Shown here: positions 23,283-60,165 of the stretch, piece by piece
Numbering within the stretch: the stretch's first letter is position 1
Layout: each line of letters starts with the position of its first letter
Source of the DNA: Cystobasidiomycetes sp. EMM_F5
Taxonomy: Eukaryota
DNA length: 64,000 bases
Direction: 5' to 3'
Assembly: GCA_051047955.1 (NCBI GenBank)
Contig: JBPGPT010000020.1
Location: forward strand, 186,001 to 250,000
Position numbers and translations under genes: made by a program
Notes under the pieces: generated by a model
Database searches by the model: none
Told to the model about the DNA's origin: nothing
The model's input: the letters and a program-made list of their open reading frames with translations, nothing else

Positions 23283-24002
23283 TCAGACGCAGCATTGCTC
23301 GTGGGAGCCTGATGCCGGTCGGATCATGAGAGTAGTAGTGTAATCCTGCTGCGCACCGGGCTTGTACTTCGACAGATCAACCGTGAAGCTCCCGACTTCT
23401 GCAAAGCCAAGCTTCGTGTATAGCGATACCGCGGCCGGACTGGCCTCCAGATATGTAAACACGCCAATTTCGTCTGCGAGAGCTAGACCGTACTCAAGCA
23501 GCTTGGTACCAACACCTTGCTTTTGGTAGTCCGGGTTGGTGAATAAGTTTGAAAGGCCTGTAGGGTAGGAGCGCTGTGAGCCAGCATTCCCTCATCACTC
23601 GCACACAAACATCAATGACTACGCACGGATATGTGCCTTTCCATCTGTATGGGTTTGCTGATGCTTGTAGAGTTCCAGCTTGAAATCATTCTTCAATTGT
23701 GTGTTTATGGATGGATGTCGACGGTGAGTCCTCGCGGGTACAGCTGCCTGCTCGGGCTCGCGGGAGATACGCCATTTAGCAAACCCGACGACGTCTTGTG
23801 GAGAGAATTGTTTGACTGCGAGCACCATCAACACTTTGGGATCCGTAGTATCCTTTCGATAATCGGCATCGGATTCGGCTTTGAGGGTGCTCGAATATCC
23901 TTGTGGATACAGAGCATCTTGCAGCGGTGAGCGAATTCCGAGGACAATGTCAGTGATGGCACCCGCGTCAGCTTCTGTCGCGAGCCGGAGTGTGAATGAC
24001 AT
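23283..24002 (-). CDS. GNAT family N-acetyltransferase
   Basis: MSFTLRLATEAD...VVGFAKW...intron...LSNLFTNPDYQKQGVGTKLL (Q-x-x-G-x-G acetyl-CoA motif)...YLEASPAAVSLYTKLGF. Confidence 0.9.
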
Positions 24003-24208
24003 TTGAAGAGACGCGATATCACGACTGGAATGGTGGTCGACAAGAGCAAAGCAGAGCGCAAGTAAGCGACATCTGAGCAGCTCTTGTCCGCTGCTCCGGG
24101 GCGCCCCGTCCGCCGGTTAGACGGGCTTGAGTTGGACTGACAAGGAAGAGGCCTGAGCGTCAAAGGCATGGTTGAACCTGCAGACTGACAAAAGAAGTGC
24201 TATTCAAG

Positions 24209-25755
24209 CTAAACATTGGCACAGCTATGGCCATCATTCGTCTGCACGATGTTATGCGCAGTCGTCGCATGAGTCGCCTCGTTGCGTGTGGAAGCCTCCT
24301 CCGCACGCTCTTCCCAATGCATTCCGCGTATCTTCGCGTACATAAAGTACATCGCGCTCCCTGCCCCCGCAATGAAACCACTCCACAAAGAACCGAACGT
24401 CTTGAAAAATGTGCACAATACGATACTCTGGCGAGACCCGTATTCAGCTTACTAAGAGAACAACTGCAAGACGGACCAGCTCACCGTCCCCACACCGCCG
24501 AGCCAATAGCAAGATACCGTGATCTTCGCGGCTGAAGCTGCTGCCCCACATCCACGGAGTATACCCGCATTCGCGTCTTGAACCGCATCTATAACGACTG
24601 CCAAAGCGAGGAGTATCGCCTGAATGAGCAGGTCAGCCGCTTTCTTTCAGGTTGTTGCGTACGACCTGGAGATCAATGCCGCTAGCTGGTATCGAGCCAG
24701 GAAGAGAAATATGGCTGCCGGTATTGACCAAAGGAGCGCAAACTTCTGTGAGATGGCTGCTGCCTCCTTGGCAAGGGCGGGCGCTCCGTCTCCCAATCGA
24801 TTACCGACGCACACGGCGGCAGCGGAAGAAATAGCATAGGTCACAGCGTTATTGTACGTTAACGTCAGGGAAAAGACAGCACTCGTAGCCTGCGCAGACG
24901 TTCCTAGGAACGCGGAAGCCAAATGTAGGGCGTCAAACGCATACCACTCTGCACATGTAGACCATATCCCGGCCAGACCAAGAACAATGTTTGGTCGCAA
25001 GTCGCGAAATATTGCTGTTGAAAGCCCTGCCCATGTAGCAGCATAGGCCAAAAGTAGAAGAAACTGTACGCCGTAGCTGATAACGCACGACAAAGGTCCT
25101 CCCATGAAACCGACATGATACGGAGATGAACCATGCACCAAAAAAATGTTCCCGGCGATGGAGATTGCGGTTCCTGCAGCAATGACCATGGTAGGTCCCC
25201 TAATTTTGCCGATGCTCAGCAAATATCGACGTGTACAGTGCAGCCAGCTCCCGCATGTGCTCGTCGCTGGATGGGATCAGCAGTCTGAACAGAACGTCTG
25301 CGTTCCAGCACGTGCCAAAGATAAAAGGCAGGTAAGACATGCACACCACGAAGGTGCGCATGGCGTATAAACTCGTCAGATAGGGATACTCTGACGTGCT
25401 AGCTGCATTGGAGAGGGTATCGAGTGCTGCGACGAGGCCAAGAATGGGCCCGAAAGCCAAGATGTTACTCGTCAATTGTCCAACATTGGCTGCGGCCAGT
25501 TCGGTCGTTCCAAGGCCGCCTAAACTGAACACGCTAGCTCCGACTATGGGGAAGCGCATCAAGTTCATGGCAATCATCGGTAGCACCACCCGTAGCAGCT
25601 TCTTCGTTTGCGAACCGGCTGGGGTATTATAGTTGATTTGGGCCTCGTTTCCCAGCAACTGGACATGGCCTGGACGACGTAGATGATGTTGGCGCAGCAC
25701 GAGCAGCCTCGAGCTCCTCGGGAGACGATAGGTCCATTTTCATGTTGTCAAACAT
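24209..25755 (-). pseudogene. MATE efflux transporter paralogue, apparently disrupted
   Basis: GLGTTELAAANVG...ALDTL, CAEWYAF, VGNRLG, GILRGCG are present. The frame breaks near 25230, where ELAALYT joins RRYLLSIG out of frame with about one TM helix missing versus the neighbouring paralogue. The upstream ATG is out of frame and there is a splice-phase mismatch near 24620-24665. Confidence 0.7.
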
Positions 25756-26045
25756 GTTTGTTGGGGCTAAATAAGCGAGCTGCGACATTGCGTTTGTAGA
25801 GCTGGTTTATTATTTGCCGACTCCAAAGCTAACAAGACGAGAAGCAGGATGCTTGGCTAATGGATGGACAGTCTGCATCCCGTCTTCTCAAGTCGAGTCA
25901 AAACAATCCCTTCCGTCGCGCGCAGACGTCCGACATACTCTGACATCCAAACGCCACGAGTCATTCTAAGCCTGCATCCAGCTCAGCTGGCTTGATTCAT
26001 TCCACTTGTTCTCAAGCTTCCTAGAGTATCTATCCATCCTCTCAC

Positions 26046-27770
26046 ATGGACGAACGTACAGAATTGCTGCCTAAATCTGCAGAGGATACCACGACTACAA
26101 CTCGTCATGAAGCAAAAGTCATTCTGGGATATGCCGTCCCTATCGCCATCACTACCACTCTGAGATACTTGGTATCAGGAGCTGCCGTCTTGGCTGCAGG
26201 CCGTCTCGGAACTCGTGAACTGGCTGCTGCCAACCTAGCCAACCTTACGTGCAATGTAACCGGGCTGGCCATAGTTGTCGGGATTGGTAGGCAGAAGTGC
26301 ATCAAAGAATCCCGAAGCGCCCTGAATTCTTCCGTCAATTTGCACAGCTGGAGCTCTGGACACCCTCTGCAATCAAGCCTCGACATCTCGGTCTCCCAAG
26401 CTGTCATCTCTGTATGCAATGCGATGCTTCATCGTGATGTGCATGGTCATGCCGATTCTGCTGCTGCTCAATTGGAATGGTAAACTCATCTTTCGGATAA
26501 TTGTCCCGAAAGCAGATCCGGAAATTGTTCGAATTGCAGTAACGTATATGAAAATGCTATCGCTAGGCACGCCTCCCATTGGAGCATACGAATGCATCAG
26601 GCGGTATCTGGCGAGCAACGGTATTCTAAAAGGTCCGGCTATTTCCTACGCGATAGGGGCCCCTTTAGCAATCTTCTTCAACTGGTTGTTTGTGCATGGA
26701 CCGTAAGCCCTTGAGAAGAAGGTGTCAGCACTAGGCTGACATTATGAGTAGCGATCGAACCAGGATTGGCATCTATGGCGCTGCCCTGTCGTCAGTGCTA
26801 GTTTACTGGGTACTATTGCTATTCATTCTACTCTACGCAATTGTAAAGACCCCACGACACACCTGGTATGGTCTATCGACCGACATCTTCCGCGATCTGG
26901 GTATCGTTATTCGCCTAGGAGGCGCTTCGATCATCTCAACCTGCAGTGAATGGTACGCATTCGAAGCCATCTCATTGATCTCGACATATTATGGTTCGAC
27001 GTCCCAAGCGTCAGTGGCGATCATGCTGTCCGTGAATGGCCTCATGTGGAGCGTCCCTACTGCTCTTGGCAGCGCGAGCGCAATCCGCGTTGGCAATTTG
27101 CTGGGAAGTGCACTCCCGCGCAAGGCTAGCGTTGCTGCCACTGCTGCACAAATCAGCGTTGTGTGCATCATGGCGATCGAATGCATCCTCCTTTTCATTC
27201 TCAGACGCGTAATTGGCAATCTTTTCAGCAACGATGAAGCAGTGATCAACAAAGTTGATGCGACGGTATGTAGACGAACTTATGGCAATCTCGTGTGCTG
27301 AAGTCTATTCTTTTTTGGGCGTGCAGATGTGGGTAGTTTGCCTCGTGTGCTTCTTTGATGGCGTCCAAGGCACTCTAACTGGCGTACTCCGAGGATGCGG
27401 CTTGCCAGAAGCCGCCGCGCAGGCCAATCTTTTTGCTTATTGGTGAGTATTCCGACAACCCGAAACAAAAGCAATCGAATGAAACTTGAACATCAGGGCG
27501 TTAGGCCTTCCCATCGGGTTGTTCATCACTATACAGTCAGAAGACATAACCGGCCTCTTCTTCGGACTTTTCCTAGCGGTATTCTGTACAAGCTCGGTGA
27601 TGGCATTCAAATTGCACAGGTGCGCCGTCCGGCTCTTTGCATCTCTAAGTCATGCTAATTCGCCTATCAGGAACGATTGGCGCGCGAGGTCGCAGGAAGC
27701 ATCAAGTAGAATCGCAGACTCAGACGCAAATGCAAACGCAGTTCATGAGAATGTCGGAGAAGTGGCATGA
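26046..27770 (+). CDS. MATE efflux transporter (appears intact)
   Basis: MDERTELLP...GRLGTRELAAANLA...GI|AGALDTLCNQA...CSEWYAFE...IRVGNLLG...FDGVQGTLTGVLRGCG...DWRARSQEA; introns keep the frame. Confidence 0.9.
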
Positions 27771-27873
27771 AAGCAAAAGTTTGGCGATTGGGCAAGCGTC
27801 AGTGGCAGTGCGCTTTTATGTAGAACATGACTAGTCCGCGGTGCGTTCGGTTTCAGAACATACCTAAAATGCT

Positions 27874-29370
27874 TTGGACGAATTGAACCGTGCATTGGAC
27901 TTTGACGTCATTGCGGTCTTGGCTTCGGAATACATGAAAATTATCTCGCTCTGTATACCAATGATTGGCGGTCACGAAGTTGTGAAACGCTACCTGGCCA
28001 GCAGCGGCCTTCTTGCGGGACCAATCATCGCTTACACTGTCGCCGCGCCGGTCTCCATCGTCCTGAACTGGCTCCTAGTTCACGGCCCGTACGTCTTGAC
28101 TGTCTTGGGCAGCACCATGTGACGTATGCTAATATATCACAGAGATCGTTATCGCATCGGGTTTCTGGGAGGGGCTGTCTCGATTGTGGTGACGTACACG
28201 CTGCTTTTCATCTTCTTGTCTCTTTATGCGTACTTCAAGGCGCCGCGAGATACTTGGGCAGGCATGTCGCTCGACATCTTCCGCGACCTAGGCATTGTCG
28301 CCAGGTACGGCAGCGCGTCCATTGCTGGCGTCTGCTCGGAATGGTACGCCTTCGAGATCTGCAGTCTAGCAAGCGCGTACCTCGGTCCCACTTCTCAAGC
28401 CTCTATAGCGATAATGATGACGGTCATGGGATGCATGTGGACCTTCCCTTCGAGTCTCGGCACAGCTACCGCCATCCGCGTCGGTAATCTTCTGGGAGAA
28501 GGCCGGCCTAAAACTGCCAAAACAAGTGCTCGAGCTGCGCAATACGGTGTCGGGCTCCTCATGCTCGTTCAGTGCAGCTTACTGTTCTTGTTGCGAACTG
28601 CCATCGGTCGTTTGTATTCTCACGATGAGTCTGTGATAACAATAGTCAACGCAACCGTAAGTTGACTTTGTTGCGCACCAGTCACCAACAACATCATTCT
28701 AATAATGCTCTTCCTCAGATGTGGATTGTTTGTCTGGTGGCCTACTTTGACGGCATACAAGGGTCGCTCGCGGGGGTGCTTCGAGGTACGAGGAAATGTT
28801 GCCGCAACATCAGCACCTTGATTTGATTCGCAAACTTGTTACAGGCTGCGGTCTGCCCGAGTCAGCGGCAAAGTTCAACCTGTTTGGCTATTGGTGAGCG
28901 GAAGTTCCTGGCAGGCAAAGCCCAGTTGTGTATTGGATGCTGACAATCGACCTTCAGGCTCTTTGGATTGCCGATAGGCGGATTCCTTACGTATCAGACT
29001 AGGAGTGTGGGAAGTCTTATGAGCGGTCTATTATTGGCTGTCGTTTGCGTTAGCGGTTTGATGGCAGTCAAGATATATCGGTAAGCGGGCTCTTCGTCAA
29101 CGGTCCAGTGGGGTCAGTAGGCTGATTCGTGCGATTAGCAACGACTGGTGCGCCCGTGCCGAAGAGGCTAGAATGAGACTGTCATTGTCGTGTGCTGGAG
29201 CTGACAGCGATGGCGAGGGGACAGTAAGAAAGTACGAAGGACAGTATTGTTACGCACACGGAAGATTGTCCGCATCAGTACTACTCAGATCTGTATCGCC
29301 CTTGTATGTTTGCGAGATCCAACTTGATCACTGCGGGCAGTTCCTCGGAGTCGGGGATCCCACCTCGTGA
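27874..29370 (+). pseudogene. 5'-truncated tandem copy of the MATE transporter
   Basis: Starts about 100 bp after the previous stop, at the equivalent of TM4 (LASEYMKIISL...KRYLASSG). In-frame TAA at 27865 and no N-terminal helices. The remainder (CSEWYAFE, IRVGNLLG, GVLRGCG) parallels 26046-27770 with mostly shared intron positions. Confidence 0.65.
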
Positions 29371-35080: not shown

Positions 35081-37076
35081 TCAATCGATGCCTATAGACG
35101 TCGCTCGGCTGTGATTGACGCTACTCATGAGCAAGCTAATGTCCAGCGATGTTTCTGCGGGCTCATTATCGGAGCATGTATTGTACATCTCGCTGTCGAC
35201 CGAACAGCTGATATCCGGCGGCGTTGCAGCAGGAGGCGGGACGTGAAATTGGTTGATGACTTTGGCTCCTATCCCAACTTGATCCATCGTAATTGTCCTG
35301 TCCAAGGCTTCTCGAGCTTTGCGGTTGAGGCTATCAAGCGTGCGCACGATATCTGCAAAGCACTCATCGCGGGAAAGAAGCTCCTCCCACGTCAGGTCGT
35401 CCTCGTCGACATCACTGTCACTCGTGACTGTACTGCTCCATTTACCAGCCCACGAACTCGCATCGGAATGAGGGGATAGCAACCCGCTTGAAGTAGACGA
35501 TGAAGTAGTAGCTAGCGATCGATTTCGTACAGCTTGTCGCAAGTCCCGCATCTCTTGCGCTTGTTTCGCTTTGCCCATTTCTAGCGCTGCATTGATGGCA
35601 AGCAGAGAGGCGTTTGTGATTTCAAGATCCAATATCTGCAGTCAACAATACGTGATAGAGTCAGTTGACTGTCTGCAATTATCTTTGGTGAAGACAACCA
35701 ACCTTTCTGTTCACTTTGGCATCAGCTTGTATCTTGACGTAAGCAGCTACCTCTGGCAGTACTGCCTTGATCGGCGAGCTTGACGTTGCTGGTATAACGA
35801 CGGATTGCGGTGTCGATGGACTAGGTGGTACTGCAGCTGTAGGCTCCATAGTCTTGCGCTTTCCGCCAATGGAGACTGATGAGATGCTGCTGGCTAGACT
35901 ATTGCTACGATGATGTGACAGCGCCGTCGGTCGAGAAGAGATAGTCTTGGACGGATCGAAAGTGAGTCTTGTGGAAGCGTTGGGCGGTGTCTGTGTTTGT
36001 GCGGAAGGATTGTGAGACGTCGAATTGCAAGATAAAGCGAGTGGAGGGTTGGGAGGTACACACGCTTTGATCGCTATTGGAGATGATGGTGTTGCTGTAA
36101 GTATAGGCGATCGTACGTGTGGAGGCCGCGACGGAGATTGTGGACGAGTCTCGCGTGAAGATACATTCAAAGCCACATTATTTGTGTTTGGGGTTGCAGG
36201 CCTCACGGGCGACAGCGGCCGTCTTATGGGCGAGGAAGGGCGTGAGGATGATATTGGTAGGCGAGTAGGAGATGCAGGTCGTCTCGCCGCGACAGCTGAT
36301 GTCGTCGGTGCTGCAGAAGCAAAGATGGAGCGGGATAGGTTACTTGGTGAGATGCTTGCAGACGGCAGCAAAGCACCGGCGGCAGGTGGACGGGTGGCAG
36401 ACTTGACTGGATCAGTGCGGATACTCCTCACTAAGGTAGGCCGCGAAGGTTGACGTTGGTCTCCATCCCCGCCTGAATCAGACAAGGGAAAGGCGTGCAG
36501 TCGCGGCGAGCCAGTCGTCGGTCCAGCGGACGCATGGGGTGCTCGGACACGAACAGTCGGCGATTCGGTAGACGGCGACTCTGCAGAAGCACCTCGAGTA
36601 CGTGCTCCAACGCCAGCCGAGGCAGACCATGGCGAGTGACTTGTGACTGGCGGTGTGCGACACCCAACCACGGGCGAGCCAGCCGGAGGATTATGATGGG
36701 GACTGGCTATAAACACCTTGGACGGGAGACTGACATTACTGCTGCCGTTGATGCCCAACACGCGGGCTCTGACTGCTCCAATGGGTGTTGTTGTTATTGG
36801 CAATCGAGCGACTGGCGATGTTGACGATGCAGCTGCAGCTCCAGGCTGGCCGTACCCTCTGGCTGTTGGCGTAGCAGCTCCCGCAGTCGGTGTGCTGAGG
36901 CTGCTGCTGCCATGGCTGCCATTGATGCTGGCGCTGGTGCTGGCTACCGGGCTGGCATTGTTATTGACGAGTCTGGCTCTTGAAACGGCTGGACTGAACC
37001 TTGACGCTGATACTGACGACGGCGTCGCTGCCTCAGACGGTGCCGTACGAGTCAGTACACGCCGCTTCTCGCTCAT
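35081..37076 (-). CDS. Ser/Pro/Thr-rich hypothetical protein with C-terminal coiled coil
   Basis: 465-codon low-complexity ORF spliced to ILDLEITNASLLAINAALE...KQAQEMRDLR, a coiled-coil motif I recall from fungal uncharacterised proteins. Confidence 0.75.
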
Positions 37077-37457
37077 GGTTCATGGTCTGGTGCAAGTGGA
37101 GACTCAGTCTGGTGCTAACCAATATGTGAGTTTACTATTCTCCAGGTTGACTCCCAAGCCATTCTCCCCAGATTCCAGCTTGCTACCCTGTTCGCAGAAG
37201 CACTGCACAGATCCCTGAGATGCTCTGCTTGGATTAGTGCCCCGGGCAGCAGGCGATGACAAGTGTCTGCGCACACACAGCCTAATCCTGCGAAAAAATA
37301 GTGTGGGGCACTCACCTGTTTCGTCCAGCGTATTAAATTGAAGAGGATTCTGTTCTCTCAGCTGCTCAGCACCTCCTACCGCGCAGACCTCGTGCTGAAA
37401 CTATCTCGGGTATCCCAATTTCTTCTGTTACTGCGCTCCATTCGACGGTCTTCCAAG

Positions 37458-37724
37458 ATGCCACTCGCGACAATGGCCGCTCTAATCACCGCGGGTGTCG
37501 CGACTCCGTTTGCAGCAGCTGCGGTCCCTGCAACCATCACGAGGTACATGGATAGAGAACCCAGCCAGCCCTCCTCCGGCTACAATCTTTCTCAGTATGG
37601 TCCAAAATCTGCATGGACTGCTACGGCCAACGCATGGAAGAATAGAGAACCTTATCGACCGGGATCTACCATTACACGCATCAGCATGGCCGGCGCAAGA
37701 AATAGTCCTACGAGGCGCGTCTAG
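37458..37724 (+). CDS. Small protein family member A (88 aa)
   Basis: MPLATMAALITAGVATPFAAAAV...WKNREPYRPGSTITRISMAGARNSPTRRV; TATTAAA at 37331; paralogous to B, C and D. Confidence 0.8.
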   Translation: MPLATMAALITAGVATPFAAAAVPATITRYMDREPSQPSSGYNLSQYGPKSAWTATANAWKNREPYRPGSTITRISMAGARNSPTRRV

Positions 37725-39269
37725 TTGTGCGTAATGCAAGGGTCAGCCTTGCTTAATCGATTACACACATCCTGTCCATTCTCTGCATTCTATTCAGTAT
37801 GTAATCTGATTGTTGTTGACCTTCTCGTCCTCCTTGCCCACTCAGATCAACGATGCCACGTACAGTTGGTGGGCTAAGCCAGCTACTGATATGTCTAGCT
37901 CAAGTAGTGCTGGCTAAGTGGGGCACGCAGCAACCCGTTGGCGAGCCAACCTGTCGAAGTAGCCCGTATGGCTGAACGAGTCGCTCGCGCTCGTTTTAGT
38001 AAGACTCTGTCAGCGTAAGACAGTAGGTGATTCTTAACGCCGCCTGCTCCTGTCAGGCAGGGTCGCCTCAGACTAGCAATGTTGTGAATTTCGTGATGTC
38101 CGCAGTCCTGTGTCCATCTACAAGACAGGCTGTCACAACCTAACCTATGCTTCAATGTTGCAACAGCAAAGCGCGATGACTCCGCATACCAACGTGCTCA
38201 TTGTAGCTGACGCGGGTCGGCACCAGATCAGGGCTCACGCTTGCTCATTTAGTCACACAGCCGTTACCTCGGACCACAAATAGGCACACATCACCAATGT
38301 CGCAAAAATCAGTCTGAGTGCTGCTGCCCGAACTATATCCCACAATGTTCCCTTTCAAAACACCGCATTGACACAGGAGCGGTCGAAATTGTATATCTCC
38401 TTTTGTCCTTGCGTGCATTACAATCTGAATGGACGATGCTACTGCTCTGTTCCCACTTATTTATACCGCAAAAACTATCGTCAGCCACCAGACACGGCCA
38501 TACAGTATCATCTTCGCTTAAATGGCCGGTCGACAAAATTCTATTCGACAAGGTCCAAGTCGCAGCAAGCAGATGTCGGCTTCTGCACCGCACAACCATT
38601 ACGTGTCGTTTGAAACAATGACAAGCGGTGCGGTCACTCCCTATACACTCAACACTGTCTCTACTACAACCACAAATAACGCACAGCCGACGCGCAGCGG
38701 CTCACAAGTCCGACTTGATACAGCAGCCGCGCATGGCGAGATAGGTAGCGCAGTGATGGCCAGATATGCTGCGAAAAATGACACTCACAAAGGACGGCAC
38801 AGCCTACTGTCGCTCGGTGCGCGCAATCGACAAGCTTAAGGCAAGACTCAATCTGGTCATCGTTATTATGCGGCTACCGGCCGCAATACTTCACTCGCGA
38901 TCGCTCACACACGCGCCTCATGTAGACTTCACCTCTCCAACAATAGTGTCTCGTTAAATTCCACGCTCACCGTCCGAACATTGCAGGCCTATACGCTAAC
39001 TAATCTGCACTTCAAAGTTGCAAAGGCGTCACGGGAGAATCGCAGGAGGGCTGTGTCAGTTCACTAAGCTCATACATGACTACTCTTTCAGGCATGGGAA
39101 TAATACATCGCCTTACGCATGTAAGCCGCGCTTTAGATCATTATAAAATCGCTTCGTGGTTCTTCATGCTTCTTTCTCTCTTCGTCATCTTGATCCATCT
39201 GACACACGCACCTTCACATCCAGCCATCTGAAGAACCCCCATCCGTCACCACCCTCGCGCTGTATTGTC

Positions 39270-39578
39270 ATGCCGGTCGCTACTGGCATTGCTGTGACTG
39301 TTGCCGCAGTGACGGGACCTTTGGCTATTTACGGCGCTGTTGGCAACGCTCAGCGGCACAGAAACGAGCGCAACCATGCAGCCCCTCAGAATCCTGCGAG
39401 TGCTGCACAAACTACAAGCAATGAGCACAGAGTGTCATTCTACAGCCAGTGGGGACCACAAGCCATCTGGGATTCCGCGACACAGGCATTCACGACCAGG
39501 AAACCTTACAAATCTGGAGCCACGAATACTCGCATAAGCATGGCTGGCGCGAGGGACAGTCCTACGAGGCCTCGTTGA
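39270..39578 (+). CDS. Small protein family member B (102 aa)
   Basis: MPVATGIAVTVAAVTGPLAIYGAVGNAQR...FTTRKPYKSGATNTRISMAGARDSPTRPR; TATAAAA at 39142. Confidence 0.8.
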   Translation: MPVATGIAVTVAAVTGPLAIYGAVGNAQRHRNERNHAAPQNPASAAQTTSNEHRVSFYSQWGPQAIWDSATQAFTTRKPYKSGATNTRISMAGARDSPTRPR

Positions 39579-39994
39579 TGCTGGAGACAGCCTTGGTTAC
39601 TCGATGTACACGCGCTATATGCTCAATTGATGCAGTATCACTGGCGCTATGTAGATCTCGTTAGCATGGCTGAATGTATTTGCAGACCGTCAAGTAAGGT
39701 CCACACACGCGCCCCTGAGAGACTACCTGACCTACCGAACATGATAAGCATCCAAAATGCCTTTGAGCAGTAACGCAATGCCCATCCCTCCAACATTTCG
39801 GCAGGATGCCGTTGACAAAGACGCGCGACACCCTTATAATCGATTGAGACGCTGCAGGCTCCTTTGATCTTGCTCACAGCCCGATGCCCCTTGAGTGTAA
39901 TATCTTGCATGTCGCTCCAAATTAACGCGCACTCTCAATCACCACCCGTCTCTTGCGAGCAATTAGCAATTCTCATCCCCAAGCCTCTGAGACG

Positions 39995-40285
39995 ATGCCA
40001 GTAGCTACTTCCTTTGCAATAGCTGCTGCGGCTTTCGCAACTCCGTTCGCCGCCACAGCCGTCTGGAGTAATGGAGTGCGCGCGGCAGGGTACAGAGATG
40101 GTGCAACTGCGCCTGCGCCGCAGATTTCCAATCATCCATCCACTCCGCAGCCCGGTATCCGTGAGCGGCTTAGCCAGTCTTGGAAGAACAGAACAGCATA
40201 CTCGCCACGGAACACGAACCTGCGCAGAATCGCTGGTAGCCGAATCAGTCCATTGAGAACGGGTCACGCCAGTGGCAGCCAGTAA
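39995..40285 (+). CDS. Small protein family member C (96 aa)
   Basis: MPVATSFAIAAAAFATPFAATAVWSN...WKNRTAYSPRNTNLRRIAGSRISPLR. Confidence 0.75.
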   Translation: MPVATSFAIAAAAFATPFAATAVWSNGVRAAGYRDGATAPAPQISNHPSTPQPGIRERLSQSWKNRTAYSPRNTNLRRIAGSRISPLRTGHASGSQ

Positions 40286-40931
40286 GCCGCGGTTGGAGAA
40301 CAGCAGCAACAGCTTCATTCAATATCTTGCTTTCCTTAGACATCATCGCATGTAGCCTTCACTTCGTTGCTTTTCGTTGATGTCCAAAGACGAGATTGCA
40401 GCGTGAACTCTGGTAGTGCGTGAGAGACAGTCTGGGGAGCCTGACTCCTGTCTTTCAATGGACGAGGTAATCAGTGTGCCGTCGCTTCATGGTGTCGACT
40501 GTGTCGTGCGAATGTAACGACTGTGGACCACGTGACAGCGTCATACTGAAACAGTACCTTACGTAGGTGGAGTATGGGTGATATGACGAGAGGACGTCTA
40601 ATCACATGTCAGTATAGCGATAGGTAAGACGTACAGGAACGGGCTTTGCGATCGTTTCTGCAGAACAAACGATCGAAAATGTCAGCTTGGTCAAGTGTAT
40701 GATGATGTTGCTTCAAGCTGGCGTTGGAACAGATTCAAAGCCTTTGTCCTGAAGTACGGATCAGGTGACGAGCCTGTCTTCAGCACACGTCACCGCCGCC
40801 TGTATTGCAGCAGCGCCAAATGCGGTGCTGCACTTGCGCCTCATAAGCGGGGACGGCGTATTGAACCTTGTTCGACTCATTGCTGGCGGCTTGGGTTCTG
40901 TCCACCATCCTCCTCCTTGACTTCCGCAAGC

Positions 40932-41170
40932 ATGTTCACTATACTCGCCTTGACTGCAGCACACCGTTAGCGGCCGCAGCTGTAGCAGGCAACGCGCAGC
41001 GCTTTTATCGCAACCGCGATCCTAATCATTCGCTCATTCAGATGCCCTCAATGCCATGTCCCACCCTGGCGGACGTAAGTGCAGCTTTCAATAATCGGAG
41101 GCCGTATAAGCCGGGCTCCAAGCGCATCAACCTGGCCGGTACGAGGCACAATCCACTAAGGCGGCGCTGA
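40932..41170 (+). pseudogene. Small protein family member D, frameshifted near codon 10
   Basis: MFTILALTAA then, in the -1 frame, TPLAAAAVAGNAQR...FNNRRPYKPGSKRINLAGTRHNPLRRR. Confidence 0.65.
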
Positions 41171-42982: not shown

Positions 42983-45081
42983 ATGCGTTTCATCGCTGCA
43001 ACTCTCCCTCCTCTCCTCCTTCTGGCCTCATCCATCAAGGCAGATGACACTTGCACATGTGCTCCGTCCAACCAAGGCAGCATTGCCAGCGGAGTCACTA
43101 GCTACTACGACGGTACACAAAGTTCTCCTATCTACCAACCGCAGGCTGTTCAAGAAGTGCCAAAGGTCCAACCAACTGAGCAGAATCTCGTCAACGGCGC
43201 ACAGAATGCTATTGCCGGTCTAGCCAGTCAAAATGTCATTCCTCCTGGTAGGTCCCCTACCTCTGCATAGTTGAGGATTGATCTCTGATGTTTGTGTCAT
43301 CCACAGAATTGGCACAACCGCTTGCAAAGGCCGTTCAGGATGCGATTAGCCAACAAGCCGCTGCTCAGCGTGTAGTATACGCCGAGGCTGGTGCGACTAT
43401 CACGACAACTGTTACTCCAAGTGTCTCTTACGCCACCCAGGTATCTACCATCAGTGGCCAGAATGTCACTGTCACTGCTACGCAAACCATCACTGCTCTC
43501 CCACCCGGCGCCACCATCCTTTCCAACCAGACCCTTCTTGCTCTCGGTGATATCCAGAACTCAATCAACGATGCCATTGCTGCCGTCAATCTCTCCAAGA
43601 CTGGCCTTGATTCTGCCGCGCAAGCTGAACTTTCCAACTGCTTGCACGCTGTCATGTCGAATGGAGGTCTACCAGCTGGCTACTCCTGCATCTCGCAATC
43701 AGGCTCCACTCAAGCTGGTCTACAGGCTACGTTCAATAACGTCCTTGAGCAGTTCTTGGGCATACTGCCAGCCAAGATTATTGATGACCTGCAAGGCGCT
43801 GTCATGCCAATGCTTACCGGTCTGCTTCCCAACGAGCGCACCCTCTTGAACAACATCAACTCTGCAATGTCGTCCGTTGTCTCTTCCCTGTCTGGCAACT
43901 CTGTCACTGCTATCGAGATGATGCAATCCTGCTACAGCATGGCCATCAAGCAAAACTCCAACACCTCCTACCTCCAATGCTACATGTCTGATGGTGGTCC
44001 GTTCGCTACTTTGCAGACAGCCATGAACTCGGTCGTACAGCAATTCGTTGGCTACCTTCCCGGCACTGTTCTTGAGAGCGTCCAGAACCTCACCTCAGCA
44101 ACCTTGACTGCAGGTGCAAGCAACGGCCTCGGTTCAATCGGTACAAATCTTACTGCTCAGTTGGACAATGCTCTTTCTTCAGTCACCAGTGCATTGACCG
44201 GGAACTCTGTCACCTTGATGCAGCAGCTCCAGGAGTGCGCAAACAAGGTCCTGATCTCTGGTGACGCATCAGCAGCCAAGAACTGCCTCGTTCAAAAGGC
44301 CGCTGTCACAGCACAGACTATGGTCGACAGTGTTGCTCAACAGTACTCTGGCTACCTTCCGTCGTCTTTCTTCAGCGATCTCGTCCAAGTGCTGAACGGC
44401 ATGAGTTCGACTGGCAATTACTCTGCAGCTCAATTGACCTCCGCGCTCGACAAGGCCTTCAACAATGCCAACATGGGTCCCGCCTACGTGGGTTGCTTCA
44501 ATCAAGTGCAAGCTTGTGTGCTCAACAACATTCAAGTAACCGGAAACTACTCTGCGAAGTGCCCAGCGCCTGTAGCTGGCTGTCAGCTGATTGGCTCACA
44601 AAATTCGACCGCTCTTGGAGTCGCTAGCAACGCTACCGCATCGAACACTACCACTCTGTCAACAAACACGACTGTCCTGCCACCGTCTTCCGCTAATGTC
44701 GCCCTCGCTTCAAACGCAACCTCGTCCAGTGTTTCGAGTTCAAGCGTCATTTTGCCAGCATCTAGCAGCTCTGGTTCCATCGCCTCTTCGTCAGCACCTG
44801 CCTCCTCCTCTTCGTCTGCTTCTGTTGCTCCGGCGTCTGCATCAGGCAACAGCAGTGCATCTGTCGCACCATCCACTTCCTCTTCTGCGCCATCCTCATC
44901 CGCTGCGCCATCCTCGTCATCATCTGCAGCGCCCGCGTCATCATCAGCTCCATCTTCGTCTACTCCAGTCGTACCCGTGTCAAGCTCTTCGTCATCTACT
45001 TCGGTCTCGTCAACCGCGGTCGTGCGAAGAGGGCATAAAAAGCTTCGCATGTCGTATGCTGGACACTACAAGATGATCTGA
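42983..45081 (+). CDS. Secreted protein with ~100-aa Cys-paired helical repeats and Ser/Ala-rich tail
   Basis: Signal peptide MRFIAATLPPLLLLASSIKA; intron 43248-43306; three full and one partial internal repeat; long S/A/P stalk; many N-x-S/T sequons. Confidence 0.85.
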
Positions 45082-55059: not shown

Positions 55060-55713
55060 TCGCTTCCCGAAGGGTATTCCCGCAAAAAGTATGCGTCGGG
55101 CCGACTTATCAGACGGGCCGAAGGGATCATCCGGGGCTCCGCCTACTGCGGCAAACCGAATGAAGGTTTCGTGCGAAGTATTAGCGGCATTGAGAAGTCA
55201 ATAGAACGCTGCTGACCTCGAGCACGAAAGCGCCGTAAAAGTAAGGTAATACTGTACCCTGCAGATAGCGTGCTTTGCCATAAGCTAGCATCTCGTTGAA
55301 GATGGTATATGCTTTGGCAGGGTGGTCTACTCGAGCATACTTTGGCCGCATGGCTGATTCGTCGTCCCACGGCATCGATGGCACCTGCTCCTTGCTTTCG
55401 TTGTCCGTCCAATAGCATGTGCCAAACAGCTTGACGATGAGACGGTGTTCAGCCTCGCAGCCTGCGATCTTTGCGAGATATGTCAGAGACCCGAGCTCCT
55501 CGTTAAACGACAGCGTGCGCTCTGCCTCGAGCTGGCAGCCTTGTTCAAGTGAGCGAGAATTTGCTCTAGGAGACGAGGACGCAATGCCCATCAAAAGTGC
55601 ATGTTGTGCGACTGGAGAGTGGGAATGGCAGCATCGGCGAGTGCGATAGGTGCGTGGTAGGCTGTGATATCAGCTCCGAGCATAAGAACGGTATTGGGTC
55701 CATCTGGCGGCAT
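55060..55713 (-). pseudogene. Kinase-like paralogue relic (N-lobe only)
   Basis: Aligns to 58325-59419 (IPTL...RPRL, LEQGC, NEELGS, LIVKLF, PWDDESAM, EMLAY, LQGTVLPYFYGA) but has an in-frame TGA near 55591, a frameshift near 55550, and a TAG immediately after the shared intron. Confidence 0.75.
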
Positions 55714-56340: not shown

Positions 56341-57881
56341 TCACATTTGCGCCAAATGCGCTTCGGTCTCGACTATGTACAGGTGCTCTTTGACCCAGGG
56401 ATGCTTAGCCAATTCTTCTACGCTTGGTCTTTGTACTGGGTCGAGACGGAGGCATAAGCGAATAAATTGGCCAGCGCAGTAGACAGCCGCTGCGTCCAGC
56501 TCGGGGGCGCTGTCCATTATCCACTTTTCGAGCCAGACTTCTTGCTCAGGATAGGGTGTCCTTAGATGTCCTGAGAGCAGAGACATTGTTCAGCATGTCG
56601 ATCGCTGGCGGCAGGACACTGATATGGCTGACCATCTTTATCAAAGAACTCGTCCTTGAGCTTCGACCGAGCTGTTAGACTGCGCGGAAAATGTGGCTCC
56701 TTTGAAATTTGCAGCATCTGCCTGAGGTGATTGAAGTCACACTCTCCCGCGACGTCCCTTTCGGCGTCTCCACCAAACCCTCCGAACAAGGGCTCTCCAC
56801 ACAGACAGGAATTCGTACGCCTGTACGTTCACGACTTCAATTAGCGCAAGGTACGATTGAGCAAGCCTAGTTCGGAGTATATGATACTCACGAGACAACC
56901 CAAAGCCCAAACGTCAACGGGTGTGCCAAAGCCTGCCTTGAGAACAACCTCTGGAGCCCGCAGCGCGATAGGCATCAACTGATCGGTCGTGGGAGGAGCA
57001 TCTGTGAGTTGAGCGTGGCCAAGATCGATGAGGCACGTAGGATGTAGATCAGGGCTGCCATCGATGCCATTCCAGCCGTGCTTCAATGGCTTCGACTTGT
57101 AAATCGGGCAGTCTCGGCCGTCGACTTCGACAGTCTGCACGACACTGTGCTGGTCTTCAGCCATTGCAGCTGAAATCTTCTCTTCCGCATCGTCTAGAAA
57201 GAAAAGGATATTGCTGCCTTTCAAATCTGTATAATCTGATCAGCAATCCGAATTCGGGCTTGTTGAGATATGGTCGAGTCGACATACCAGTGTGCACGAT
57301 ATTCTGGCAATGCAGGACACGAAGGCTGTCAATGCTGTCCAGTACAATTTGTTTGACCGTGAGCAATGGCAATCTTCGATCCGGTCGTGAACGACAAAGG
57401 TCGTCGACGCTGGTGGATAGAACGTCGGTGACGAGACAGAGGAAACTGTCGCTGGACTCCTTTTGATGAAAGTGGTCTCTAAGACAGTGTTAGCTATAAG
57501 TTGCGCAAATGTGACTTGCCCCGCACCGTAAGATGGGAAGATTTCTAGCTTGTGCCCTTTCCGAACGCGTTCGTAGATGGCGAGTTCTTGCAATATCCCA
57601 GCTTGAACAAGCTTTGTCGCATTGGCAGTCAGGATCTTGCAGGCGTAGTGTTTAGGCTCCGGACTGGCCTCGTCAGAGACAAGCCAGCAGGTACTGTATT
57701 GTCCAGACCCTAGCTTGCGCTGAATTTGATAGCGTCCACCAGTGCCCAGCCTGTCACCCAGCCGACACAACAGTGAATCTCGCATTGCCTTTGCGGCACA
57801 GTCCAGCATGGCGACAGCTCGCAACGGATGAGACAGCAGCGAACGGGACCTCACTACGCGAAAGCATTCGAGGATTCTCAA
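56341..57881 (-). CDS. SRPK/Sky1-like CMGC protein kinase, possibly frameshifted
   Basis: RYQIQRKLGSGQYSTCWL, ACKIL, LCLVTDVL, IVHT|DLKGSNIL, IDLGHA, LRAPEV, DVWALGCL, CLRLDPVQRPS; frame ambiguity near 57500-57560. Confidence 0.8.
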
Positions 57882-58324
57882 GCCGCAATATTTGGCGTAT
57901 GCGAGTCTCTGCTCAACTTGTCATGGTGTAGATACACAGTACGCAAAGAATGTCAATCTGGTCCCGCTGGAGGATTGGCCATGGTATACGTCCCACATCC
58001 TTACTCAAAGGGCATGCATATAGAATTCAAGGCTTAGAGACTAACGTAAGCCTTCATAACAGAGATGACGGAATCGAGCTTTGGATCGGCCCTACCTAGC
58101 ACGCCTCGCTTTGTGCCTTTCGCAATCATCTTGGACCGTCTAGTCCAGTACAACGATCTCTTACAAAGTCGGTACCTCCCTCTCGAGATACATTCGGACG
58201 GCCAAGCACGCAGAGTAGACCGGCGCAGGTTACCAATCTTGGGCCCACGCGGCCAGATCCAGTGGCAGAGGTAAAGCAAACATCTTGTCGACTTCGCTGG
58301 ACCAAAAGAAAGTGCGTCGGGATG

Positions 58325-59419
58325 CTAGCGACCTTCTCGAAGCTGTACAGAGGTCCCTTTAGATAGAAACAAGCTGCCACTTTCCATCGCCTTCGTCTGC
58401 CACTCCAAGACAGCGTCTCTATCAGTCATAGCGGATTTAGCGAATGCGTTGTGCAGGTCATGCACCATCCGATGAAAGTTCTCGATGTTGAGCCAAGCAT
58501 GCTTGTGCCGACCAGTCACCTTGGAGATTGAGCAACTCTGTGCGAGGTCAATCAGGACGATGTCGATACATGGTGGGTTCTCATTCAGGACCAGGGCGTT
58601 GCGGCCGGCTATGTCGTAATGAGCGATGTCACATGCGTGCAGCCGGACGTATGCAACCAGAATCTTATCGAGCTGGTCAGTACGGTAATTAGCTGTGTTT
58701 CCGTTACACCGGACTATCGCTCGTCAAATGCCTTACGACTCTCGATACGTCTTCGTGTCTAATGCTTCCAAAGAAGTCACGAGCAGTGACCGCTGCATCA
58801 AGCCACTCAATCAAGAGCACGTACAATGCGGGATTATCGTTGCGCTTCGGAGATTTGGGTGTCTTGATTGCCGCAAGCTGGAGTCAGTGCAGGACTCCTA
58901 TGACTTGAAGTCGCAGGGACCGACTCCGAGAGCGTGAGCGCCGTAGTACTGCGGGATAACAGTTCCTTGCAAGTGTCTTGCCTTGTGATAGGCTAGCATC
59001 TCAGAGTGAATGCCAAATTCTGGCGGATCATAGGTTCCGCTGTAGAAGCGTTTCTTCATGGCATCTTCGTCTCCCCATGGTATGGGCTGCTCAGCCGGAG
59101 GCCCCAACTCCGTTGTATCTTGCAGAAACCCCCGAGCAAACAGCTTTGCGACGATGCGTCCGCTGGTCGGGTTGCCAGGTTTGGAGCAGATATAGACTGC
59201 AGAGCCAAGTCGCTCATTGTGAGCAATAAGCTTGTCCAACCTGAGCTCGCAGCCTGGTTGAAGGTGCTCAAATTCGGGCAATCGCGGACGCTGACTTGTC
59301 GCGATATCGAGATTGAATTCAAGGAGTGCAGGAATGGGATCCTCAGCCTCTGGGATAGGTTGAAAGTCTCCAGGTATTCGCGACGCCAGTGTGATGGTGC
59401 ATTCATTCTTAAAGATCAT
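58325..59419 (-). CDS. Atypical fungal protein-kinase-like protein (appears intact)
   Basis: IVAKLF (beta-3 Lys), SEMLAY (helix C Glu), LQGTVIPQYYG; after two introns LYVLLIEWL, IAHYDIAGRNALV (HxDxxxxN) and VLIDLA (DFG-equivalent). The 3' end is uncertain. Confidence 0.8.
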
Positions 59420-60165
59420 GCTGCGTCGCTACGTTAGTAGGGACAAGGGCCTTTAGGTTCGAATAATTGCGAGGTCCGAGACGGCAGGTCGTCGTTCAAC
59501 GGCCGCTTTCGCAGCAGACAGTAGGGTCATTGCAGCATTCAGTGCATGTTACTCAGTTTTCTAAACCCGTGTAATATCATTTAAGCCGGGCCAATTGGCG
59601 AGCTGCCATCGGGCGTAGAATTGGCCATCTTTCCCCGCAGAAACTCTCCACAAACGACGGCTCAGACGGTAGCAGCTCAAACTAAGCACATTAACAATGT
59701 AATCGATGATCACTTGCTCATACCACATCCTGGCTTCCACGACTGCAATTCCTGTTACAAGCTGCCACCAGGGTGGAAAGCCTCCACAGGCTATGAGTGC
59801 ATCCTACGCAGGATTGGAGATACTTCGATTACATATGCGCCGTGTATGTAGCGGCTGCTCACTAAAAGTAGAAAAGCATCCACTTCGGCGATACTTTGAG
59901 TCCCAATTTCTGCATTGCTCTTACTGGGGCTCCGTTGTTGTCGCCGCGAATGTTCGAACGCCGCTTGAATCGGGCGTTTCAGTGGCCGACAAAAGACCTG
60001 TGGTCCCTGCCAGACCACTTCATCGACCTTGCCATTGTACAAACGCGATGGCTGGCTTCAAGGTCGCGCAGAGAGTCCTGCTGAACATGCCTGCGTGGAA
60101 GGATCGCGACTTCCAAGATAGACACTGTAATGCGAGGGTGATCCTCTTGATCCAGGAGACTCTGC

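Follow-up and report, generated by a model that had tools for sequence, protein, structure and literature searches.

A tandem array of small cationic proteins in a Cystobasidiomycete genome: an apparently undescribed family under coding selection, possibly secreted

In the genome of Cystobasidiomycetes sp. EMM_F5 (assembly GCA_051047955.1), we have analyzed a stretch of 64,000 nucleotides, hereafter the window (contig JBPGPT010000020.1, positions 186,001 to 250,000 of the forward strand), that contains a tandem array of small genes. The array consists of three intact genes, A, B and C, and one frame-broken paralogue, D (Table 1). All four are homologous, their protein sequences are maintained by selection, and they share a cationic composition, with an Ala-rich N-terminus and a conserved cationic C-terminal block. 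They apparently form an undescribed family of a familiar general kind, which we tentatively interpret as small secreted proteins.

Homology and coding selection

In each of the six possible pairs, the protein alignment score lay above those of all 2000 shuffles (z 7.9–21.4), and the annotated frame was the best of six. Leave-one-out hidden Markov models (HMMs), compared without filters, recovered every member at 40.5–60.8 bits, while the best non-member among 1342 frames reached at most 10.6 bits. Over all aligned codons, the proportion of changed synonymous sites (pS) is 0.69–0.79 in the six pairs and thus near saturation, whereas that of non-synonymous sites (pN) stays at 0.39–0.45, and at 0.20–0.40 in the C-terminal block. 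As judged from this pattern, the copies are old duplicates under protein-level selection. Note that the codon alignment was built on the proteins, which favours a low pN, so that an ungapped block of 45 codons shared by A and B provides the firmer test. Here, 21.5 synonymous and 30.5 non-synonymous differences yield a pS of 0.64 and a pN of 0.30 (Fisher p 0.0005; bootstrap pN/pS 0.31–0.70). A preliminary description of the array, made from the DNA alone, had called the changes between A and B mostly synonymous; this holds per site, but not for the raw counts. It had also proposed a dN/dS comparison between the copies; by site proportions, pN lies below pS in all six pairs. When codon positions were modelled on 16 long frames of the window, A and B outranked 114 of 115 stop-free shadow frames; the signal is weaker for C and D, which fell into the top 7% and the top 10%, respectively. 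Together, the shuffles, the HMMs and the excess of pS over pN uphold the earlier proposal of a lineage-specific family of small proteins under coding selection, for which no relatives were found.

A non-coding RNA was considered and rejected. Folding at the 3' ends does not exceed that of shuffled sequences (z +0.3 to +1.8), conservation is frame-specific, and the one Rfam match for the array, with 25 bits where the gathering score is 86, likewise weighs against this reading.

Array layout and copy D

The array resides in an 18.3 Mb eukaryotic assembly of 253 contigs. Successive members are separated by 1545, 416 and 646 nt, in agreement with the 0.4–1.5 kb given in the preliminary description, and a purine is found at position -3 of all four ATGs. 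The earlier count of four co-oriented open reading frames (ORFs) stands for A, B and C, each intact from its ATG, but not for D, where the frame is broken.

Table 1. Coordinates of array members and flanking elements, numbered from the first nucleotide of the window.
Feature	Position	Strand	Description
Gene A	37458..37724	+	Intact ATG-to-stop ORF, 88 aa, pI 10.9; hydrophobic residues 3–24, linker, predicted amphipathic segment, C-terminal block
Gene B	39270..39578	+	Intact ATG-to-stop ORF, 102 aa, pI 11.2
Gene C	39995..40285	+	Intact ATG-to-stop ORF, 96 aa, pI 12.0; most diverged; C-terminus 6 residues longer
Copy D, broken	40917..41170	+	N-terminal part (ATG 40932) and body (40961–41170) in different frames
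TATA-like TATTAAAT	37331..37338	+	127 nt upstream of the A ATG; predicted from sequence
Canonical TATAAA	39142..39147	+	128 nt upstream of the B ATG; followed by a pyrimidine-rich leader
3' flank of A	37735..37766	+	Block of 33 columns that recurs in the B 3' flank; out of frame
3' flank of B	39579..39611	+	Matches the 3' flank of A

In D, the family frame is open from 40865 to 41170 and has no ATG ahead of its hydrophobic block, while the ATG at 40932 lies in a frame other than that of the body and runs into a TAG after 12 codons. In the frame of this ATG, the 14 codons from 40917 resemble residues 1–14 of A–C, ranking in the top 0.6% of the 79,746 stop-free 14-mers of the window, and the corresponding 14-mer in the body frame scores among the worst in the same comparison. 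We therefore place the frame break at approximately 40958–40962. Inspection by eye for an intron that might rescue the reading frame revealed an AG at 40958–40959 as a possible acceptor, but no matching exon that begins with an ATG in frame and ends in a good donor within the usual distance. Compared with A–C, the body of D still shows a pN far below pS; it contains a single Cys and carries Asn in place of Ser before P-x-R. Judged by its sequence, D is a true paralogue, yet either a pseudogene or an assembly error.

Protein anatomy

The proteins A, B and C start with MP[LV]AT, followed by TP[FL]A or GPLA. Residues 3–24 are rich in Ala, Thr and Val, with Pro17 and Ala19 invariant, and two conserved Arg residues stand past the hydrophobic stretch, at about 29 and at 33–34. 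A linker of variable length that cannot be aligned separates this part from a segment with a helical hydrophobic moment of 0.24–0.41, which leads to [WF]xxRx[PA]Y and then to AGxRx[SN]PxR. This C-terminal block is present in all four members, and the family is most conserved at its C-terminus; S-P-x-R occurs in all three intact copies. The portion past residue 22 comprises 62–80 residues with a net charge of +7 to +10 (pI 10.9–12.0). An AlphaFold prediction for B, based on an alignment of four rows, contains helices at residues 3–36 and 63–75 and no fold (mean pLDDT 50.5, pTM 0.18); although of low confidence on such an alignment, the model is consistent with disorder. The structure prediction that the preliminary description had called for was thus run on B, and two of the traits it had described are confirmed, namely the shared Ala-rich start with a central Pro (MP[LV]AT in A–C, invariant Pro17) and the cationic C-terminal block in four of four members.

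A candidate family of secreted proteins

The reading that we prefer, although we hold it to be somewhat short of probable, is that the array encodes lineage-restricted small secreted proteins in three working copies plus D, with the conserved C-terminal block as their working part. The Ala-rich residues 3–22 would act as a weak, cleavable signal peptide, and export would probably proceed via the Sec62/63 route that does not require SRP, the signal recognition particle. Weaker hydrophobic cores direct a protein to this SRP-independent route. Cleavage after residue 22 (or 15) would release a Cys-free and largely disordered protein of the length and charge given above, in which the variable linker may be a spacer, and the conserved last 30–40 residues, with their short amphipathic helix and the two motifs, would be the working part. 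We can only speculate that this block binds an anionic extracellular target through its charge and its helix face, be it the organism's own wall or matrix polymers or the membranes of competing microbes.

The N-terminal segment is Leu-poor, and its best 9-residue Kyte-Doolittle mean is 2.1–2.4; the signal-peptide-like start of an adjacent gene, the one comparator used, reaches 2.0. A site with small residues at (-3,-1) and Pro at -6 falls between residues 22 and 23 in four of four members, and between residues 15 and 16 in all three intact copies. On the Wimley-White scale, the mean over the hydrophobic segment is 0.01–0.16 in the three intact copies. A value of 0.4, taken from PMC4010795, marks the divide between an anchor in the endoplasmic reticulum (ER) and weaker segments, and with 0.01–0.16 the segment is therefore too weak for an ER anchor. 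According to PMC2120870, the hydrophobic core sets the route of ER targeting.

Several observations speak against secretion. The shared cleavage column also arises in 45% of 5000 shuffled N-termini, and a basic n-region is missing in the three intact copies, where residues 1–25 have a net charge of 0 and contain no Lys or Arg. Conserved Arg residues stand just past the hydrophobic stretch, as they do in N-anchored proteins. S-P-x-R, which we take to be a motif for proline-directed kinases, fits a cytosolic site of this kind in all three intact copies. Finally, Cys-free, Arg-rich disordered proteins would probably be sensitive to proteases outside the cell.

Arrays of small orphan proteins in tandem are familiar in fungal genomes, and by analogy the working of the array would come closest to that of the small secreted orphan proteins that basidiomycetes carry in clusters, minus their usual Cys. 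The candidate effectors of smuts, rusts and Microbotryum are likewise short, orphan, co-oriented tandem paralogues, and basidiomycete effector families also combine a signal-like N-terminus with diverged middles. In contrast to such families, the proteins of the array are Cys-free and strongly cationic, have a very weak signal core, are most conserved at the C-terminus, produced no sequence match to them in protein searches, and gave no sign of a host. A farther-reaching version of the proposal, a new class of Cys-free cationic secreted peptides in Cystobasidiomycete yeasts that diversified in tandem and escaped gene callers, and whose C-terminal block serves as an antimicrobial or as a signal from cell to cell, appears unlikely.

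Other systems of small proteins, some of them tandem or built as leader, core and follower, were compared by their definitions and were rejected. The proteins end in TRRV, TRPR, SGSQ and LRRR and not in the CAAX of an a-factor-type lipopeptide pheromone as found in Pucciniomycotina, and they lack the eight-Cys pattern of a hydrophobin, with no Cys in A–C, one in the body of D, and no Pfam match. On both counts, as on the absence of Cys from A–C, the preliminary description was right. Kex2-processed repeat proteins of the alpha-factor type are disfavoured, as there are no repeats and the dibasic sites do not align across all four members. The leader and the Pro-flanked short core that define MSDIN cyclic-peptide precursors are absent from all four. 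The hairpin of an oleosin comprises about 70 hydrophobic residues with a proline knot; here, the hydrophobic stretch of about 22 residues holds one Pro and no such knot, so that an oleosin-type form of the hairpin anchor for lipid droplets that had been suggested earlier is unlikely.

Membrane anchors and peptide precursors as alternatives

A possible but rather unlikely alternative to secretion is that the N-terminal segment remains uncleaved and serves as a signal anchor in the mitochondrial outer membrane or at the surface of lipid droplets or peroxisomes, with the cationic tail in the cytosol, where it would dock a partner via the conserved block and be switched by phosphorylation of S-P-x-R. 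A Leu-poor segment of moderate hydrophobicity, with Wimley-White means under 0.4 in three of three intact copies, agrees with such an anchor, and so does the single helix of residues 3–36 in the AlphaFold model, if at low confidence. S-P-x-R is found in A, B and C, but D has Asn at the position of the Ser, and tandem orphan arrays are more typical of secreted families. The lack of positive charge before the segment, with a conserved Arg after it, corresponds to the mitochondrial signal-anchored pattern described in PMC4010795, where proteins of the Tom20/Tom70 type likewise have a single, moderately hydrophobic N-terminal segment followed by Arg. Compared with the latter, the array has a basic flank in only two of four members (at least 3 basic residues within residues 25–36 in B and D, and a net charge of 0 there in A), the invariant Pro17 in the middle of the segment, no folded cytosolic domain, and multiple copies.

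Considerably less likely are pre-pro-peptides that would be secreted and then cut down extracellularly to a short signalling peptide from the C-terminus, to be sensed or re-imported in the manner of Cryptococcus Qsp1. A conserved leader, a variable spacer and a conserved terminal block would suit such a precursor, and there is a precedent in a basidiomycete yeast: according to PMC7537855, Qsp1 leaves the cell as a pro-peptide, undergoes extracellular maturation by Pqp1, and requires the oligopeptide transporter Opt1. The array genes resemble that of the Qsp1 precursor in being small and in having a product that may be secreted as a pro-peptide and carry its active part at one end, but their proteins are longer, highly cationic and without a database match, and the conserved block of about 30–40 residues is three times as long as mature Qsp1 with its 11 residues. 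Internal repeats are missing, no dibasic site is shared in position by all four members, and those ahead of the block, in B and D, precede a Pro. No gene for a protease or transporter adjoins the array, the nearest aspartyl protease exon being about 6.5 kb away.

Search for relatives

Searches of the 18.3 Mb genome with each of the four proteins matched the array members only, although these searches score the best candidates only and distant copies could escape them. A degenerate codon pattern for AGxRx[SN]PxR had 11 matches in the genome and 7 in a control. Four of the 11 are the array itself, and the other seven loci were rejected as family copies with at most 6.1 bits on the family HMM. 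An exact look-up in a collection of 15 billion proteins returned B once, as an unnamed entry (P0001), and neither A nor C, and profile searches of the protein collection did not find A and C under other starts. The statement of the preliminary description that gene callers would miss such ORFs is borne out in this collection. Among 5.8 billion proteins, the profile matched only B itself (707 candidates), and the same was true of 1.84 billion representatives searched with HMMER, among the matches listed down to 37.6 bits. Four extra profile matches (P0003–P0006) were discarded as sums over repeats, with a best single stretch of 5.4–14.7 bits compared with 128 for B. The proposed HMM check thus found array members only within the genome and B only outside it.

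None of the four members matched a Pfam family; the best NCBIfam match had an E of 0.07, and there was none in PHROGs and none in the Protein Data Bank (PDB) at an E of 10. In Atlas, B was without a match above 0.80 and A without a usable named match. At the DNA level, covered by searches of the array's own genome and by scans of genome, metagenome and viral contigs, the metagenome scans confirmed none of 597 and none of 69 candidates, and the viral scan none of 21. The sole match on a genome contig (L024, Actinoplanes), an off-frame stretch of 58 codons within a 713-aa ORF with helicase-type motifs that we presume to be RecQ-like, was attributed to chance. The literature search, in which few subscription journals were covered, found no description of the family. 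The preliminary description had named a confident match to a characterised family as a refutation; none emerged from Pfam, NCBIfam, PHROGs, PDB, Atlas and the protein sets searched. As the protein collection holds only one of the three intact copies, other fungi may have uncalled relatives as well, and a blank in protein searches is weak evidence.

The latter point would also fit if the array were a fast-evolving branch of a family known from other fungi, one that lies beyond the reach of the searches or is unannotated there. We nevertheless regard this as very unlikely, given that HMMER listed matches to just below the 40.5–60.8 bits found between members and returned only B, and that Pfam, NCBIfam, PHROGs, PDB and Atlas offered nothing usable.

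Between A and B lies a further ORF of 105 aa (38522–38839, + strand) with faint family-like words. It was rejected as a fifth member, as 109 of 1000 shuffles score equally well. Its coding score lies above 112 of 115 shadow frames, it is single-copy, and the protein collection holds one unnamed entry for it (P0002); by these features it may be an orphan gene in its own right, or a remnant.

Flanking elements

The preliminary description had noted clear TATA-like boxes for A and B. This applies to B, with its canonical TATAAA, but A has only TATTAAAT. C has TATAAT at -160, and no TATA element was found upstream of D. For comparison, TATAWA occurs at -200 to -40 in 4 of the 122 ATG ORFs of at least 80 aa in the window. 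That the array consists of decaying duplicates, once coding and now silent, is suggested by the frame break in D but is highly improbable, with three frames still open despite near-saturated synonymous divergence, each of the four ATGs preceded by a purine at -3, and the TATA-like boxes of A and B at matching distances.

The block common to the 3' flanks of A and B reaches a score not attained by any of 300 shuffles and shows no unusual folding; it may have been left by the youngest duplication or be an element of the 3' untranslated region (UTR). By eye, the roughly 70 nt directly 3' of the A stop (37727–37797, + strand), GTGCGT...TTCAG, have the look of a 3'-UTR intron that holds this block. 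A similarity of about 35 nt, approximately 300–360 nt 5' of B and C (38906–38941 and 39702–39735), was seen in one of six pairs of upstream regions (p ~0.05), a possible shared promoter element or chance.

Genomic neighbourhood

The left neighbour, with its ATG at 37076 on the minus strand, lies 381 nt from the ATG of A and is divergent to it; its Ser/Pro-rich product has no Pfam match. To the right, at a distance of 1.8 kb from the array, a two-exon gene (42983–45081, + strand) encodes about 690 aa with a signal-peptide-like start, scattered Cys residues and a long Ser/Ala-rich tail; it has no Pfam match and resembles an orphan protein of the wall or surface. Exons for an aminotransferase, an aspartyl protease and a MatE protein lie 4–9 kb to the left, with nothing to link them to the array. 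Several MATE-like transporter copies occupy 23619–28665 in both orientations, one exon being confirmed as MatE, and are adjoined by an ORF that we presume to be GNAT-like, without a Pfam match; the aspartyl protease and aminotransferase exons follow further right. On the minus strand, 55181–55669 and 58898–59428 are related ORFs with EMLAY...ARxLQGTV-like words on either side of a kinase-like ORF (57240–57920), and the group looks like a local expansion of what we take to be kinase-fold genes. Two marker genes place the window in Pucciniomycotina and agree with the class Cystobasidiomycetes. A glycoside-hydrolase-63 exon is 63–68% identical to its top matches, mostly from Microbotryomycetes, among proteins of at least 1083 residues, and for a phosphoglycerate dehydrogenase frame the best named match (P0131; 89%) comes from Cystobasidiomycetes; Mixia reaches 55%.

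Among the genes adjoining the array there is no processing enzyme, transporter or receptor, and we therefore see no multi-part system. The preliminary description had advanced the array as an undescribed system; the family is apparently undescribed, but the system finds no sign in its surroundings.

Significance

As it stands, this is one more orphan array, with no new mechanism shown. It does provide a well-supported protein family that is missing from annotation in two of its three intact copies, in a thinly sampled fungal class, and with a conserved block short enough for synthesis and testing. If the proteins are anchored, they would represent a new organelle microprotein; if they are secreted and active, the few peptide families known from basidiomycete yeasts would be joined by one that is cationic and Cys-free.

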